Assembly: GCA_963734155.1 (NCBI GenBank)
Contig: CAVTGG010000014.1
Coordinates: forward strand, 309,841 to 373,840
Source: an uncultured Acidobacteriota bacterium
Lineage (GTDB): Bacteria > Acidobacteriota > Thermoanaerobaculia > Gp7-AA8
DNA length: 64,000 bases
Direction: 5' to 3'
Below the pieces are notes generated by a model that was not told the DNA's origin, did not search any database, and saw nothing but the letters and a program-made list of their open reading frames with translations. Shown piece by piece: positions 6,889 through 27,821 of the stretch. Position 1 is the first letter of the stretch; each line of letters begins with the position of its first letter. A program made the position numbers and the translations under genes.

Positions 6889-6964
6889 TGGAGCCGATGA
6901 CCGGACTCGAACCGGTGACCTGCTGATTACGAATCAGCTGCTCTACCAACTGAGCTACATCGGC
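6889..6964 (-). tRNA. tRNA-Thr (anticodon CGT)
   Basis: A manual cloverleaf fits: acceptor GCCGATG/CATCGGC, D-arm GCTCAGTTGGTAGAGC, anticodon stem GCTGA/TCAGC with loop TTCGTAA, T-arm ACCGGTTCGAGTCCGGT, discriminator T plus an encoded CCA. Confidence 0.85.
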
Positions 6965-7082: not shown

Positions 7083-7159
7083 GCGCCCTTAGCTCAGCTG
7101 GATAGAGCATCAGACTTCGGATCTGAGGGTCGGGGGTTCGAATCCCTCAGGGCGCGCCA
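7083..7159 (+). tRNA. tRNA-Arg (anticodon TCG)
   Basis: The acceptor is GCGCCCT/AGGGCGC. The anticodon stem is TCAGA/TCTGA with loop CTTCGGA. The T-loop is TTCGAAT. An encoded CCA is present. Confidence 0.85.
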
Positions 7160-15319: not shown

Positions 15320-16522
15320 ATGGCGCTGGTCTCCGCGATTCGGATCGTTTTTCACACTCTACGCCATGCGCTCACGGATCGTGTCCATCGCGTGTGGCGC
15401 GGCGCGGCGCATCGCGAGCGGAAGTTGCGCATCGGCGTCGACATCCGCCCGTTTTACGAGCCGCTGACCGGCGTCGGCTGGTACCTCTACTTCGTCCTCC
15501 ACGAGCTCGCGAAATACAAGCACGTCGAGCTCTATCTCTTCGGCGATGCGCGCGTCACGGACCTCGGCCCGACGCTGCACGTCGACATCCCGTCGAACGC
15601 GAAGCTCTGCTCGTTCGATCTGCGCGGCATCCCGTGGCGCAACGCGATGCGGCCGATGACCGCGGCTGGTTACGTCGCCTGGCTCGCGCTCTCCGACTGC
15701 GACGTGTACTTCGGCGCGAACTATTTCCTGCCGCGGCTGCACGGCGCGATCGCGAAGCGGCGCGTGATCACCGTGCACGATCTGACGTACAAGCGCTTCC
15801 CGGAGCTGCTGCAGAAGGAGACGCTCGAGAATCTCGAGCGCGAGATGGCGCGCGAGGTGGCGATCGCGGACGCGATCATCTGCGTGTCGGAATCGACGCG
15901 GCGCGATCTGCTCGAGTTCTATCCGATCGCTCCCACGCGCGCCGTGGCGATTCACTCCGGCCTCGCCCCCGCGCCCGCACCCGAGCCGCTCGAAGGTCTC
16001 CCCTCCCGCTACATCCTCTTCGTCTCCACGATCGAGCCGCGCAAGGACCTCGGCACGCTGATCTCCGCGTACGAGCGCCTGAACGATCCGACCGTGTCGC
16101 TCGTCGTCGTCGGAAAAGTCGGCTGGAAATCGAAAGCGTTGCTTCCGCGGCTGCGCGGCCGCGGCATCGTGCACCTCGACTACCTGCCGCCGTCGCAGCT
16201 GGCGACGGTGTACGAGCGCGCCGCGGCATTCGTGTTTCCGTCGATCTACGAAGGATTCGGATTCCCGCTGCTCGAGGCCATGCGCCACGGCATCCCGTCG
16301 ATCGCCGCGCGCTCGTCCTCGCTGCCGGAGATCGGCGGCGACGCGGCTCTGTACTTTCCCGCCGGGCGATGTCGACGCGCTCGAATCGCAGCTGCGGCGC
16401 GTGCTCACCGATGATGCTCTGCGCATCGATTTGTCCACGCGTGGAAAAGCGCGCGCGGCGGAGTTCCGATGGGAGATCGCAGGCGCGAAGACGCTGGAGG
16501 TGTTACAAAGAGCGGCGGAATG
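15320..16522 (+). CDS. GT4-family glycosyltransferase (apparent +1 frameshift near 16361-16367)
   Basis: The GT-B C-terminal motif is FVFPSIYEGFGFPLLEAMRHGIPSIAA. The reading frame breaks after LYFPAG (ccgggcg) and resumes in another frame to a TGA at 16521-16523. Confidence 0.55.
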
Positions 16523-17533
16523 AGAGTCGTCATCGACGGCCGCCCGCTCGTCGGCAACCGCACCGGCATCGGCGTGCACACCGCCGAGATCACGAAGCGC
16601 CTCCCCTTCGAAACGATCATCGCTTCTCACAAAGCAATCGAAGATTGCGCCAGATCTTCATCGCTCATCCTTCATCGTTCATCCTTCATCCCTCGGCGTC
16701 CTCTGGCAGCAAACTCAACCTCCCGAAAATCGATGGCGATGTTCTCTGGGGTCCTCACGGCACTCTTCCTCTGACCTCGCGCCTTCCGTCTGTCGTCACG
16801 CTGCACGACTTCACCTCCATCACGATGCCGGGCCGGCATCGCCTGAAGACGATCCTCTCCTTCAACCTCTTCATCGGCGCGAGCCTGGAAAAAGCATCGC
16901 GCGTCGCCTGCGTCTCGCGCGCGGTCGCGGACGAGGCGATGCGCGGCTTCGGCGTGCCCGCATCGAAGATCGAGCTCGTGCCGAACGGAGTGGACTCGTT
17001 TTTTTCTCCCGACGGTGAGGAAGAAGACTACGTGCTCTACGCGGGCACGATCGAGCCGCGGAAGGGACTGAATGATTTGTTCGCGGCGTGGAGTGCGCTG
17101 CCGCAGCCGCGGCCGCGGCTCGTGCTGTGCGGCGACGCGGGCTGGGGCATGCGCATCCCGGACGGCGTCGAAGTGACGGGATACGTTTCGCGCGAGCGGT
17201 TGCGCGAGCTGTATCGCCACGCGCGCGCGTTCGTCTATCCGTCGCACTACGAAGGCTTCGGCATTCCTCCGCTCGAAGCGATGGCGTGCGGCGCGCCGGT
17301 GATCGCCACGCGCGTCGGTGCAATCCCCGAATACGCGGAAGGCGCCGCGGAACTGATCGCACCCGGCGACGTCGCGCGTGCTGCGCGCTGCACTCACGCG
17401 TGTGCTGGGCGATGCGACGCTGCGGCGCGAGCTTCGCGCGCGCGGTCCGCAGCGCGCACGCGCGTTCGGATGGGACGAAAGCGCGCGCACGATGGCCGAG
17501 CTGATTCGTGGAACACCGTGGAACATCGCGTGA
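16520..17533 (+). CDS. GT4-family glycosyltransferase (at least 2 frame disruptions, including a 13-bp tandem duplication)
   Basis: It begins MRVVIDGRPLVGNRTGIGVHT and has the motif FVYPSHYEGFGIPPLEAMACGAPVIAT. The frame changes near 16640-16700 (TTCATCCTTCATC x2) and again near 17385. Confidence 0.5.
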
Positions 17534-17559
17534 TCATTTCGATTTTCATAAACAAATGC

Positions 17560-17588
17560 TTGACAATATCGTTTAAGGATTCTATTTT
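17560..17588 (+). promoter_or_regulatory. near-consensus sigma70 promoter (TTGACA-N17-TATTTT) in AT-rich patch
   Basis: The -35 TTGACA is at 17560-17565, followed by a 17-nt spacer and the -10 TATTTT at 17583-17588. The local AT-rich composition is unusual for this genome. Confidence 0.5.
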
Positions 17589-17761
17589 TCGATCAGTAAA
17601 ACGATGATCGCCGAAAAGAAGACGAAATCTTCATTCACGCCGCAGGTCATCGATGTTCGTTTCCCCACCCAACCGTTAACGATTAGCCGGATTCAATCCG
17701 GCGCGTTATGCCAAGAGCGCGACCGGGAGGTCCCGTACGGCATGAAAGGTGGTGAGCACTG

Positions 17762-17830
17762 ATGGCTGCTAAGAAGGGTGGCAAGAAAGCCGCTGCGAAG
17801 GGCGGAAAGAAGACCGCGAAGAAGAAATAA
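17762..17830 (+). CDS. 22-aa Lys/Ala/Gly-rich micro-protein MAAKKGGKKAAAKGGKKTAKKK
   Basis: A strong SD (AAAGGTGGTGA) lies 6 nt before the ATG. The stop TAA is followed at +35 nt by an intrinsic terminator. It lies downstream of the promoter at 17560. Confidence 0.5.
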   Translation: MAAKKGGKKAAAKGGKKTAKKK

Positions 17831-17864
17831 GCGATCATCACCGAACTTTTGGGGAGTCGTATGC

Positions 17865-17897
17865 GTCAGGCCGGCAAACGCCGGCCTGACGTTTTTC
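17865..17897 (+). terminator. rho-independent terminator
   Basis: A GTCAGGCCGGC-AAAC-GCCGGCCTGAC stem-loop is followed by GTTTTT. Confidence 0.65.
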
Positions 17898-17935
17898 AGC
17901 GCAACTTTTCGAATCCGCGCAACGTAACTCTCATC

Positions 17936-18604
17936 ATGCGATACGCCCTTGCCTGCCTCACGGCGGCCGTGCTGTTTGCACCGGCCGCTCTCGCTGACGA
18001 TGATGTCGAGCATTCCTTTCAGACGTCGGTGCCCCGCGGGCAGGTCCAGCGCGTGGTGATCGACATTCCGTTCGGCGAGTTCACCGTGCGCAACGGCGCG
18101 GCGAACGCGATCACCGTCGCCGGCATCGCCTCACGCGACTACGACGGCCACCGCGAGCGCCTCTGGGCGCAGCAGGTGGTCAACGACACGAGCGTCGAGA
18201 TCGTGGTCCGCGGCGCCGAAGCGACCGTGCGAAGGAAGTTCGGCCCGAAGGCGCAGAGCTGGCGGGCGAAGAAGTTCACCGGAATCGACGTGAAGCTCGA
18301 GCTGCCGCCGGGACTCGACGTGAAGTTCGAGACCAGCGCCGGCGAGATCGACGTCGCCGGACACTTCGGCGATCTCGACATCGATCTCAGCGCGGGCGAA
18401 GTCGACGTGCGCGTGCCGCGCGCGACCGTGCGCGAGCTGAACGCCTCCTGCCGCATCGGCGAAGTGCGCACGAACCTCGGCCACGAGATCGTAGCGCGCG
18501 AAGGGATCTTTCCCGGCAAGACGCACTTTTACAACGCCGCCGGCCAGGGACACGTGAACGTGCACACGACGTTCGGCGAAGTGCGGGTCACGCTGACGCA
18601 GTAA
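17936..18604 (+). CDS. secreted DUF4097/DUF2807-like beta-helix (putative adhesin-fold) protein
   Basis: There is a signal peptide (MRYALACLTAAVLFAPAALA). GEIDV, GEVDVRV and GEVRVTL strand motifs repeat. The long ORF start at 17849 was rejected because it encodes the upstream terminator hairpin. Confidence 0.5.
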   Translation: MRYALACLTAAVLFAPAALADDDVEHSFQTSVPRGQVQRVVIDIPFGEFTVRNGAANAITVAGIASRDYDGHRERLWAQQVVNDTSVEIVVRGAEATVRRKFGPKAQSWRAKKFTGIDVKLELPPGLDVKFETSAGEIDVAGHFGDLDIDLSAGEVDVRVPRATVRELNASCRIGEVRTNLGHEIVAREGIFPGKTHFYNAAGQGHVNVHTTFGEVRVTLTQ

Positions 18605-18695
18605 CGCGGCAGCGTGCAACGAGCGCGCGGGTCCTCGGTCCGTTCGTCGTCACCTCGCCGCGCAATCCTGCGCCTCGAGCACGCGCGCGCTCTGG

Positions 18696-19647
18696 TCACC
18701 GCGGCCTGCGCTCGGCGCGCCGCCGGCGCGATGCGGCCGATGCGATCTCTTCGCCGGTGAGCAGCGGGCGGATCGAGAAGTCGGGGAAGTCGAGCGCGTC
18801 GTCGCGGCCGAGGGCGCGGAGGAGCGCGGGAAGCTGCCGTGCGATCGATTCGCCGGCGTCGTAGAGCGCGATGCGGTCGTGATGATCGATCAGCCGCCGC
18901 AGCGTCTGCACCTCTCGCAGCAGCGCGTGGCTCCAGCCCAACTGATCGCCGCCCGCGAGCGCGAGCGCAGCCGGCGAACGAGACGTCGTCCGCATGAAAC
19001 ACGCCCGCGCGGATGCCGAGGACTTCGTCGAGCGCGGTGCGGTGCAACAGATCGAGTGCCGTTCGAAACGCGTTCGACGAGAAGATCACCGACAGCTCGT
19101 ACATCACGCGCTCTTTCGCGACGCTGGCCAGCTTCGGCGCACGCTCGCGGATCGCCGCGATCGTCGCGTCATCGATCGACATGCCGTACTTCACGGCCAT
19201 GCGCACGCCTTTCAGCGTCCGCAGCGGATCGTCGTCGAAATTCTCGGCGTGGACCATCCGCACGACTCGGTCGCGAAGGTCCTGCTGTCCGCCATGCGGA
19301 TCGAGCAGCGCGCCGTTGGAGAGATCGACGGCCATCGCGTTGACGGTGAAATCGCGGCGCGCGAGGTCGTCGGCGATGTTGGCGTCGAGCAGCTCCGCGA
19401 AATCGTAGACGTGCTCGGGCAGCACGACGCGGTACGCGCTCAAATGCTCCTGATCGCCGAGGCGGATGACTTTCGGGGAAACCGTGCGCGCTGCGGCGAG
19501 GGGATCGAGACAGGCCACGTCGGCGTCGGCGGGCTCGCGTCCCATGAGCAGATCGCGAATCGCGCCGCCGACGACGTAGGAGCTCGGCGGGAGCGTCGCG
19601 AGCGCGGGGAAACGGCGAACGAGCTCGTCACGCCACATGGTCGGCAA
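18696..19647 (-). CDS. cca: tRNA nucleotidyltransferase (CCA-adding)/poly(A) polymerase family (apparent frameshift near 18990)
   Basis: The Pol-beta head motif is GGAIRDLLMG ... DADV ... RRDFTVNAM. The C-terminal region continues in another frame (ORF 18696-18995). Confidence 0.7.

Positions 19648-26530: not shown

Positions 26531-27821
<1,291 letters not shown>

Follow-up and report, generated by a model that had tools for sequence, protein, structure and literature searches.

A conserved micro-gene for lysine-rich peptides, with a structured mRNA, in soil Thermoanaerobaculia

A stretch of 64,000 nucleotides (nt) from an uncultured member of the Acidobacteriota (Thermoanaerobaculia; assembly GCA_963734155.1, contig CAVTGG010000014.1, positions 309,841 to 373,840 of the forward strand; hereafter the window, numbered from its first letter) carries, between a glycosyltransferase gene and a gene for a secreted protein, a compact unit in which a promoter and a long leader precede a 22-codon open reading frame (ORF) and an intrinsic terminator. 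Comparison with related loci identifies this unit as a micro-gene: it is conserved and independently organised, its ORF is under coding constraint, its mRNA is structured, and its promoter and terminator are conserved as well. On the same comparative grounds, selection acts on the reading frame, charge and small-residue composition of the peptide, not on its exact sequence, and on the exact sequence of the mRNA in a 5' hairpin, a hairpin capped by a GNRA loop, an element termed P3/P4 and two blocks of the 3' untranslated region (UTR). We propose, with a probability of roughly 60%, that this micro-gene is autonomous and strongly transcribed, that RNA structure gates its translation, and that its product resembles the tails of H1-like proteins and binds polyanions as a polycation.

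The unit had been singled out in an earlier note on this DNA, which described TTGACA-N17-TATTTT in an AT-rich island, a Shine-Dalgarno (SD) sequence ahead of a 22-residue Lys/Ala-rich ORF, an intrinsic terminator behind it, and leader hairpins that could be regulatory. The comparisons made here support that micro-gene interpretation. The promoter lies at 17560–17588, in an island of 37–38% GC amid DNA of 60–78% GC; the SD and ORF occupy 17745–17830; the terminator stem begins 33 nt past the stop codon and is backed by its predicted fold and by compensatory changes; and two of the leader hairpins, H1 and P2, covary in relatives. Beyond what was proposed there, conservation is higher in the UTRs than in the ORF, the SD is predicted to be maskable, and the unit is one of soil Thermoanaerobaculia.

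Distribution in related genomes

Relatives were gathered through an anchor gene and, independently of it, by pattern. The anchor is the gene directly downstream of the unit (17936–18604), which encodes a 222-residue secreted protein whose homologues occur only in metagenome-assembled genomes of Thermoanaerobaculia or Acidobacteriota, from soil. On this ground a proteobacterial, Burkholderia-like source, considered at first in view of the 68% GC, was rejected. Thirty-five species-level genomes fetched through this gene were scanned for AGG[TC]GGTGA followed by an ATG that opens a 20–35-codon Lys/Ala/Ser/Gly ORF. The unit was found in 32 of the 35, usually 100–250 nt upstream of the anchor gene, about 3.7 kb upstream in five genomes and 1.9 kb upstream in one. 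An anchor-independent search of metagenome contigs with the exact 21-nt pattern CCCGT-N2-3-GGCATGAAAGGYGGTGA recovered the unit in at least 120 contigs, mostly from soil. The combined set holds at least 144 units and at least 98 distinct peptides of 17–35 residues, and the recurrence of the whole unit in so many related loci shows that it is not a product of chance. Most pair counts and start and stop counts given below are based on a subset of 122 distinct units and promoter counts on 115 units; a further alignment holds 33 sequences from the genomes of 33 species (the 33-genome alignment).

The unit ranks among the most conserved stretches in its part of the genome, and its distribution places it in soil Thermoanaerobaculia, where it is widespread. 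Neither strand of the window holds a second lysine-rich micro-ORF of this type.

Coding constraint on the micro-ORF

The translated part of the unit consists of the following features.

17745–17755, plus strand: extended SD AAAGGTGGTGA, 6 nt before the ATG
17762–17830, plus strand: micro-ORF of 22 codons plus TAA (ATG at 17762, TAA at 17828–17830), encoding MAAKKGGKKAAAKGGKKTAKKK
Example of another peptide of the family: AAKKGGKKAAAKGGKKTAKKK

The start codon is ATG in all 122 distinct units, and the stop codon is TAA in 120 and TAG in two. In a unit outside this set (locus L139) a TTG start replaces the ATG and the frame is kept. The SD is present in all of the at least 144 units by construction, being part of both search patterns; the gap between its end and the ATG is 5–7 nt in 121 of the 122 distinct units and 0 nt in one. 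The peptides, at least 98 of them distinct, share the form M-A-[A/S/T]-K-K ... K-K-x-x-K-K-[K/R]-stop, in which codon 2 is GCC, GCA or GCT. In the interior, KK pairs recur every few residues with 2–5 small residues (A, S, G, P, T) between them, as in MAAKKKPAKKAAKKPAKKK, and the net charge is about +8 to +12.

Three lines of comparison point to coding constraint. First, the K-K-K-stop landmark was located without regard to frame and its distance to the ATG then measured: the distance takes 17 values, each a multiple of 3, whereas two control spacers, from the stop codon to GGGGAG (14 lengths) and along the leader (36 lengths), are spread evenly over the three residue classes. Second, the composition of 107 distinct ORFs (2299 codons) is tightly restricted, with 46% K, 22% A, 20% S, 7% G, 2% T, 2% P and 0.4% R, one L, one internal M, and not a single D, E, N, Q, H or aromatic residue. 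Acidic codons are absent although GAG and GAA sit one transition from AAG and AAA, and serine is drawn from both codon families (TCN 329, AGC/AGT 124). Third, variability at codon positions 1, 2 and 3 is 0.12, 0.05 and 0.21, such that third positions vary most and second positions least. The earlier note had proposed conservation in relatives and coding constraint across them as checks, and both come out in favour of coding: the ORF recurs in the 32 genomes and at least 144 units already mentioned, its lengths stay in frame, its composition is restricted, and its third positions vary most.

Two loci depart from the pattern and may be assembly chimeras. L060, at a contig end, has the usual leader and SD, but its 41-codon ORF turns into an EF-hand-like DKDGDGKL, and L120 has neither the GGGGAGUCGUA block nor a terminator.

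Architecture of the mRNA

The predicted transcript of about 300 nt folds at -122.5 kcal/mol (z = -5.1 against shuffles) and contains the following elements outside the SD and ORF.

17602–17652, plus strand: 5' hairpin H1, in which CGAUGAUCGC (17602–17611) pairs with GC-A-GGUCAUCG (17642–17652)
17618–17632, plus strand: apical stem of H1, GAAGA (17618–17622) with UCUUC (17628–17632)
17658–17666, plus strand: pyrimidine-rich segment CGUUUCCCC, mostly CGUCUCUCC in relatives, then a C/U-rich spacer whose length varies
17686–17702, plus strand: leader hairpin P2, GCCGGATTCAATCCGGC, with stem GCCGGA / UCCGGC
17707–17744, plus strand: P3/P4 element, UAUGCC-AAGAG-GCG-C-GACC-GGGA-GGUC-C-CGU-AC-GGCAUG, ending 0–3 nt before the SD
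17831–17842, plus strand: post-stop segment GCGAUCAUCACC, in which UCAUCACC is complementary to the SD sequence GGUGGUGA and GCGAUCAUC to the 5' sequence GAUGAUCGC
17848–17861, plus strand: 3'-UTR block UUUGGGGAGUCGUA, immediately before the terminator and in single copy in the window
17864–17896, plus strand: intrinsic terminator, stem CGUCAGGCCGGC / GCCGGCCUGACG with loop AAAC, then UUUUU

Identity of the relatives to the window is about 90–95% in the core from P2 to the ATG and about 94% in the 3' UTR, compared with 75% (DNA) in the anchor gene and 68% in the ORF. Leaders fall into two types: type A leaders of 161–196 nt carry H1 and an upstream GTGGAAC site (described below), and type B leaders of 125–133 nt have neither.

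An RNAalifold consensus was computed on the 33-genome alignment and compared with shuffles and with slid partners. In the consensus 98.5% of the cells pair, as opposed to 95.0% in shuffles and 27–54% with slid partners, and nine pairs have changed on both sides. Covariation supports three helices, namely the terminator and the leader hairpins H1 and P2. In the 122 units H1 is 94% paired, with 99% of cells pairing in the 33-genome alignment; its closing pair is UA in 50, CG in 31 and UG in 17, and its apical stem varies in sequence and length while pairing is kept. P2 is 98% paired, with compensatory changes at three pairs (AU 103/CG 14, GC 114/AU 7, CG 117/UA 3). The terminator is a G+C-rich hairpin of 12 bp (17864–17891) in which five of 11 pairs have changed on both sides and 99% of the cells pair in the 33-genome alignment, with many pair types among the 122 units. 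A simple terminator scan did not list this hairpin, probably because a terminal G-T pair consumes the first T of the run. Four loci (L002, L007, L012, L030) have a second, tandem copy of the terminator hairpin after the first.

The loop of P2 is AUUCAAU in the window and a GNRA loop (GCAA or GCGA) in nearly all relatives, including the 93%-identical L034; since frameshifts lie near P2 in the window, its loop could be a sequencing error.

Two further elements are conserved nearly to the letter. P3/P4 is near-invariant, with a GNRA tetraloop that is GGGA, GUGA or GAGA, and all P4 pairs are retained in 122 of 122 units, with two CG-to-UA compensations. The 3' half of P3/P4 belonged to the search pattern; the 5' half did not, yet it is equally invariant. 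In the 3' UTR the 14-nt block UUUGGGGAGUCGUA is identical in 33 of 33 sequences of the 33-genome alignment and nearly so in the metagenome units. It could pair with the C/U-rich leader segment, serve as a seed that recognises targets in trans, or be bound by a protein.

Long-range pairing and the Shine-Dalgarno sequence

Both a leader segment and a post-stop segment could mask the SD. The helix between the SD and the post-stop UCAUCACC is 90% paired in the 122 units and 97.7% in the 33-genome alignment, and U-to-C changes in it convert G-U to G-C pairs but break a rival helix between the 5' and 3' ends. For the C/U-rich leader segment, RNAalifold predicts pairing with GGGGAGUCG (79% in the 122 units, 97% in the 33-genome alignment), a helix in which only C/U changes occur, opposite invariant G; in the window's own fold, the C/U-rich segment at 17658–17666 pairs with the SD and not with GGGGAGUCG. 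Both long-range helices are compatible with the data as modelled, short of proof.

The rival helix that would close the transcript between its ends, GAUGAUCGC:GCGAUCAUC, came from a single-sequence fold. It is 94.5% paired in the 33-genome alignment, but only 81% paired, with uncompensated changes, in the 122 units. It was rejected because the same changes are better explained by H1 (94% paired and covarying) together with the SD:UCAUCACC helix; it may still be an alternative state.

In type A units (n=95) there is a weak correlation between the lengths of the C/U-rich leader spacer and of the ORF (Spearman 0.36, p = 4e-4, uncorrected for phylogeny), a hint that the pyrimidine-rich spacer could pair with the purine-rich ORF.

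Promoter and genomic context

Upstream of the transcript lie three elements.

17507–17524, plus strand: GTGGAAC site, tandem direct repeat CGTGGAAC-AC-CGTGGAAC, about 71–88 nt upstream of the predicted transcription start
17537–17557, plus strand: AT-rich, UP-element-like block ATTTCGATTTTCATAAACAAA, immediately 5' of the -35 element, 37% GC against about 68% nearby
17560–17588, plus strand: sigma70-type promoter, -35 TTGACA (17560–17565), 17-nt spacer, -10 TATTTT (17583–17588)

TTGACA/TATTTT is the sole sigma70-like match in the 2.5 kb between 16500 and 19000, where shuffles give 0.2, and transcription would start near 17595. Among the 115 units the -35 element is TTGACA in 114, the -10 element is CATATT in 63 and TATTTT in 43, and the spacer is 17 nt. 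The AT-rich block is conserved column by column across 112 distinct promoter regions, and its position and composition suggest the role of an UP element. The two GTGGAAC copies, 10–11 nt apart, stand 42–43 nt upstream of the -35 element in 92 of the 115 units and are missing from type B units; this tandem is a candidate binding site for a transcription factor. Transcription of the unit would be strong and probably regulated.

In the window the repeat at 17507–17524 is perfect, is the only exact copy, and overlaps the last codons of the upstream glycosyltransferase ORF. A GTGGAAC regulon within the window was considered and dropped, as there are only weak matches at chance level; a copy with two mismatches at 27635–27652 on the minus strand falls within chance expectation.

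The unit is flanked upstream by a GT4 glycosyltransferase gene and downstream by the secreted-protein gene that served as anchor, the product of which has no Pfam domain. Of 121 assessable units, 102 are followed by the anchor gene at no more than 440 nt and on the same strand, and in 14 it is 1.8–3.8 kb away; it is absent in five units with enough flanking sequence, and in one of these five (L097) a convergent CCA-enzyme gene follows directly. Persistence of the unit where its anchor is displaced or lost argues against a role as leader peptide or attenuator.

Other observations concern the neighbouring DNA. Lineages in which about 3.7 kb separate the unit from its anchor have three inserted genes there, all on one strand; in locus L024 (517–3940) they encode a 597-residue membrane adenylate/guanylate cyclase, a 217-residue protein and a 327-residue M48-like peptidase. 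In the window, positions 17901–17938 read GCAACTT, 15 nt, CGTAAC and, 8 nt on, ATG, which resembles a promoter of the extracytoplasmic function (ECF) sigma factor type with a near-leaderless start of the secreted-protein gene; of 123 distinct downstream regions, 35 contain a loose ECF-type motif, compared with 0.16% of shuffles. The GT4 glycosyltransferase gene (16469–17533, plus strand) is split over three frames, with breaks near ~16700 and ~17380, and a gene of the CCA/poly(A)-polymerase type (18529–19647, minus strand) loses frame near ~18990 and continues in the ORF at 18696–18995. These frameshifts in neighbouring genes are either indel errors of the assembly or marks of pseudogenes. The window also holds two divergent tRNA genes, at 6892–6964 (minus strand) and 7083–7156 (plus strand).

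Searches against known families

At gathering thresholds, a search of the window with Rfam 15 returned two tRNAs only. With relaxed thresholds, neither the region (E <= 10) nor 11 related loci (E <= 5) yielded a relevant family, the best sub-threshold matches being terminator-like hairpins or chance. Five peptide variants had zero matches in Pfam and, in NCBIfam, a sole match to Rv3852_fam (E = 4.8, 7.7 bits against a cut-off of 100), and no chain among the PDB sequences matched at E <= 10. An exact look-up of ten peptides, including every form of 29–35 residues, in a collection of 15 billion proteins found none of them, and a literature search returned no description of such a peptide or RNA. 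The unit represents a small-protein family and a candidate RNA structure that are both new.

Proposed function and alternative explanations

In the reading that we favour, the near-consensus sigma70 promoter would drive transcription over about 300 nt, as far as the intrinsic terminator, and translation from the very strong SD would yield a polycation of 17–35 residues. By analogy with H1-like proteins, the peptide may act as a free polycation that binds and neutralises DNA, ribosomal or other RNA, or polyphosphate. The models suggest two possible ways of masking the SD, through the leader's C/U-rich segment or through the anti-SD-like UCAUCACC. Since UCAUCACC starts five nt past the stop codon, a ribosome that terminates there would, hypothetically, keep the SD open; translation would then sustain itself, and an idle mRNA would close.

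Several points weigh against this reading. Evidence for the micro-gene is entirely comparative, and every relative was obtained through the anchor gene or the exact 21-nt pattern, which limits the phylogenetic range sampled. Any particular polyanion named as the target is a guess. Slippage at triplet repeats (AGC, TCG, GGC, AAG) could account for part of the multiple-of-three indels; composition, the synonymous pattern and the conservation of start and stop codons indicate that it is not the whole story. With regard to gating, the SD has a mean predicted pairing probability of about 0.8 and its partners differ between members, and in type B units H1 is missing and the anti-SD segment is weaker. 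Neither the SD:anti-SD helix nor the C/U-rich:GGGGAG helix has a single double compensatory change, as their G-rich strands never vary; for this reason we infer the SD:UCAUCACC helix and do not regard it as shown. Finally, the greater conservation of the UTRs than of the ORF suits an RNA-centred function at least equally well.

Such an RNA-centred or dual-function RNA, in which the UTR blocks (P3/P4 and the unpaired UUUGGGGAGUCGUA) would have the main function, as a seed for base-pairing targets or a site bound by a protein or the ribosome, and the ORF would be secondary or a device for opening and closing, is the alternative that survives best, though we hold it to be unlikely. It would account for UTR blocks that are 90–94% identical where the ORF is 68% and the neighbouring gene 75% identical, and for the invariance of the 14-nt block in 33 species; the layout of leader, small ORF, unpaired block and terminator also resembles that of dual-function RNAs such as SgrS. 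However, constraint on the ORF at the amino-acid level implies that the peptide is selected too, and the block is G-rich and SD-like, whereas typical seeds of small RNAs (sRNAs) are anti-SD-like. The complement of the GGGGAGUCGUA block has no site beyond chance in the 64-kb window, and no Rfam family matches.

It is less plausible still that the product is a ribosome-associated micro-protein, ribosomal or involved in hibernation in the manner of bTHX, bL36, bS22 or eL41, with the UTR as a feedback operator that mimics rRNA. The peptide is comparable to the smallest ribosomal proteins in size and charge, the UP-like promoter and the SD are very strong, and GAUCAUCACC in the 3' UTR resembles the 3' end of 16S rRNA, GAUCACCUCC. 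This resemblance is short and possibly due to chance, no ribosomal-protein model or PDB chain matches, and the gene lies outside ribosomal-protein operons, between a glycosyltransferase and a secreted protein. Low-complexity peptides of 17–35 residues are also far more variable than structural ribosomal proteins usually are.

An equally improbable extension joins charge and sensing. The peptide would be a genetically encoded bulk polycation, bound to the ribosome or rRNA or standing in for polyamines or Mg2+ in the neutralisation of nucleic acids, and the mRNA would be the sensor (P3/P4, two GNRA loops, the post-stop anti-SD), open when ribosomes are engaged or counter-ions fall and otherwise closed. 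If this were true, micro-genes that gate themselves would be a new class, present in soil bacteria that are abundant.

A lysine-sensing leader peptide, on which stalling at Lys codons would control read-through of the terminator into the secreted-protein gene, is very improbable. Lysine does make up 46% of the codons, a terminator follows the ORF, and the same downstream gene lies within 440 nt in 102 of 121 units; yet the unit is kept where that gene is 1.8–3.8 kb off or missing, and the gene has no link to lysine metabolism, no Pfam domain and, in many loci, an ECF-type promoter-like motif of its own. Moreover, 33 nt separate the end of the ORF from the terminator stem, and the ORF is not overlapped by any conserved antiterminator; the conserved partners are the SD and the C/U-rich segment, the post-stop segment is assigned the SD or the 5' end and not the terminator, and a structured leader of 125–195 nt is foreign to the classical design. 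An attenuator of the downstream gene was accordingly rejected on the synteny breaks and the helix partners.

Least credible of all is that the plus strand does not code, with the ORF open by chance or an antisense ORF (17683–17841, minus strand, 52 residues) as the real gene: triplet-repeat slippage could explain the indels and 119 of the 122 units have an open antisense frame, but on the plus strand the ATG and strong SD are invariant, the lone ATG-to-TTG change still leaves a start codon, acidic codons are wholly absent and serine comes from both codon families, while the antisense frame, rejected for its incoherent translation (a mix of F, D, E, P and A) and missing SD, has stops in three units and turns conservative plus-strand changes into radical ones.

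Two further ideas were dropped. CsrA-type GGA motifs are not conserved across variants, and neither are the serines that the neighbouring glycosyltransferase might have glycosylated.

The unit bears on an annotation blind spot, as genes under about 30 codons are invisible to standard gene callers, and it is common in soil metagenomes. It points to a small-protein family selected for charge and composition rather than for sequence, and its mRNA, with three covarying helices and several invariant blocks, is a candidate new RNA family. If the peptide is a free polycation like the tail of H1-like proteins, it would reduce a protein that binds the nucleoid, ribosomes or polyphosphate to its minimal form; should the post-stop anti-SD work as proposed, a message's translation would be coupled, in a compact way, to its own ongoing translation.

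Comparison with known systems

Type I toxins are hydrophobic and insert into membranes; the peptides do not share this property, as one L and one internal M are the only non-small hydrophobic residues in 2299 codons. Attenuation leaders such as trpL, hisL, thrL and pheL are similar in having a short ORF rich in one type of codon and then an intrinsic terminator. Unlike them, the unit has no antiterminator overlapping the ORF and no cognate biosynthetic operon, and a long structured leader lies upstream. SD-masked mRNAs and leaders of the cspA type resemble it in their strong promoter with an AT-rich upstream block, a leader of about 125–195 nt and pyrimidine segments complementary to the SD. 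It differs from them in having one of its candidate anti-SDs behind the stop codon of an ORF of about 20 codons, where this segment would couple masking to termination. To our knowledge, there is no described example of such post-stop anti-SD coupling on so short a message.

Dual-function sRNAs (SgrS/SgrT, RNAIII/hld, SR1/SR1P) resemble the unit in transcript length (about 300 nt), in carrying a small ORF, in a conserved block left unpaired just 5' of the terminator, and in RNA parts that are more conserved than the ORF. In contrast to theirs, the conserved block here is G-rich and SD-like, not anti-SD-like, and there is no Rfam match. The smallest ribosomal proteins (bTHX, bL36, bL34, the mycobacterial bS22/bL37 and the eukaryotic and archaeal eL41) have about 20–45 residues and are extremely basic. 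The peptide is like them in size, charge and strong expression signals, and unlike them in matching no profile or PDB entry, in having almost no Arg and no aromatic residues, in its variable sequence and length, and in being encoded outside ribosomal-protein operons.

The last comparison is with H1-like proteins (Chlamydia Hc1/Hc2, Pseudomonas AlgP, Bordetella BpH1 and the C-terminal PAKKA tail of HupB). These are about 100–350 residues long, so that the peptide (17–35 residues) is 5–20 times shorter, and it stands alone with no folded domain; the HupB tail is mycobacterial and, unlike the free peptide, is fused to a folded domain. The peptide also shows no homology to curated models of H1-like families, and it has a structured mRNA of its own with UTRs more conserved than the ORF. 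What it shares with H1-like proteins is low-complexity Lys/Ala/Pro/Ser sequence. Repeats of the H1-like kind (AKKA, PAKK, KPAA) are found in the peptides, with KK pairs every 4–5 residues as in AAKKAAKKPAKK. Peptide length changes by gain and loss of short repeats, as is reported for Hc2 (PMC2848022), and AlgP has been linked to polyphosphate granules (PMC9239181). By this analogy, the expected partners of the peptide, as of H1-like proteins, would be polyanions.

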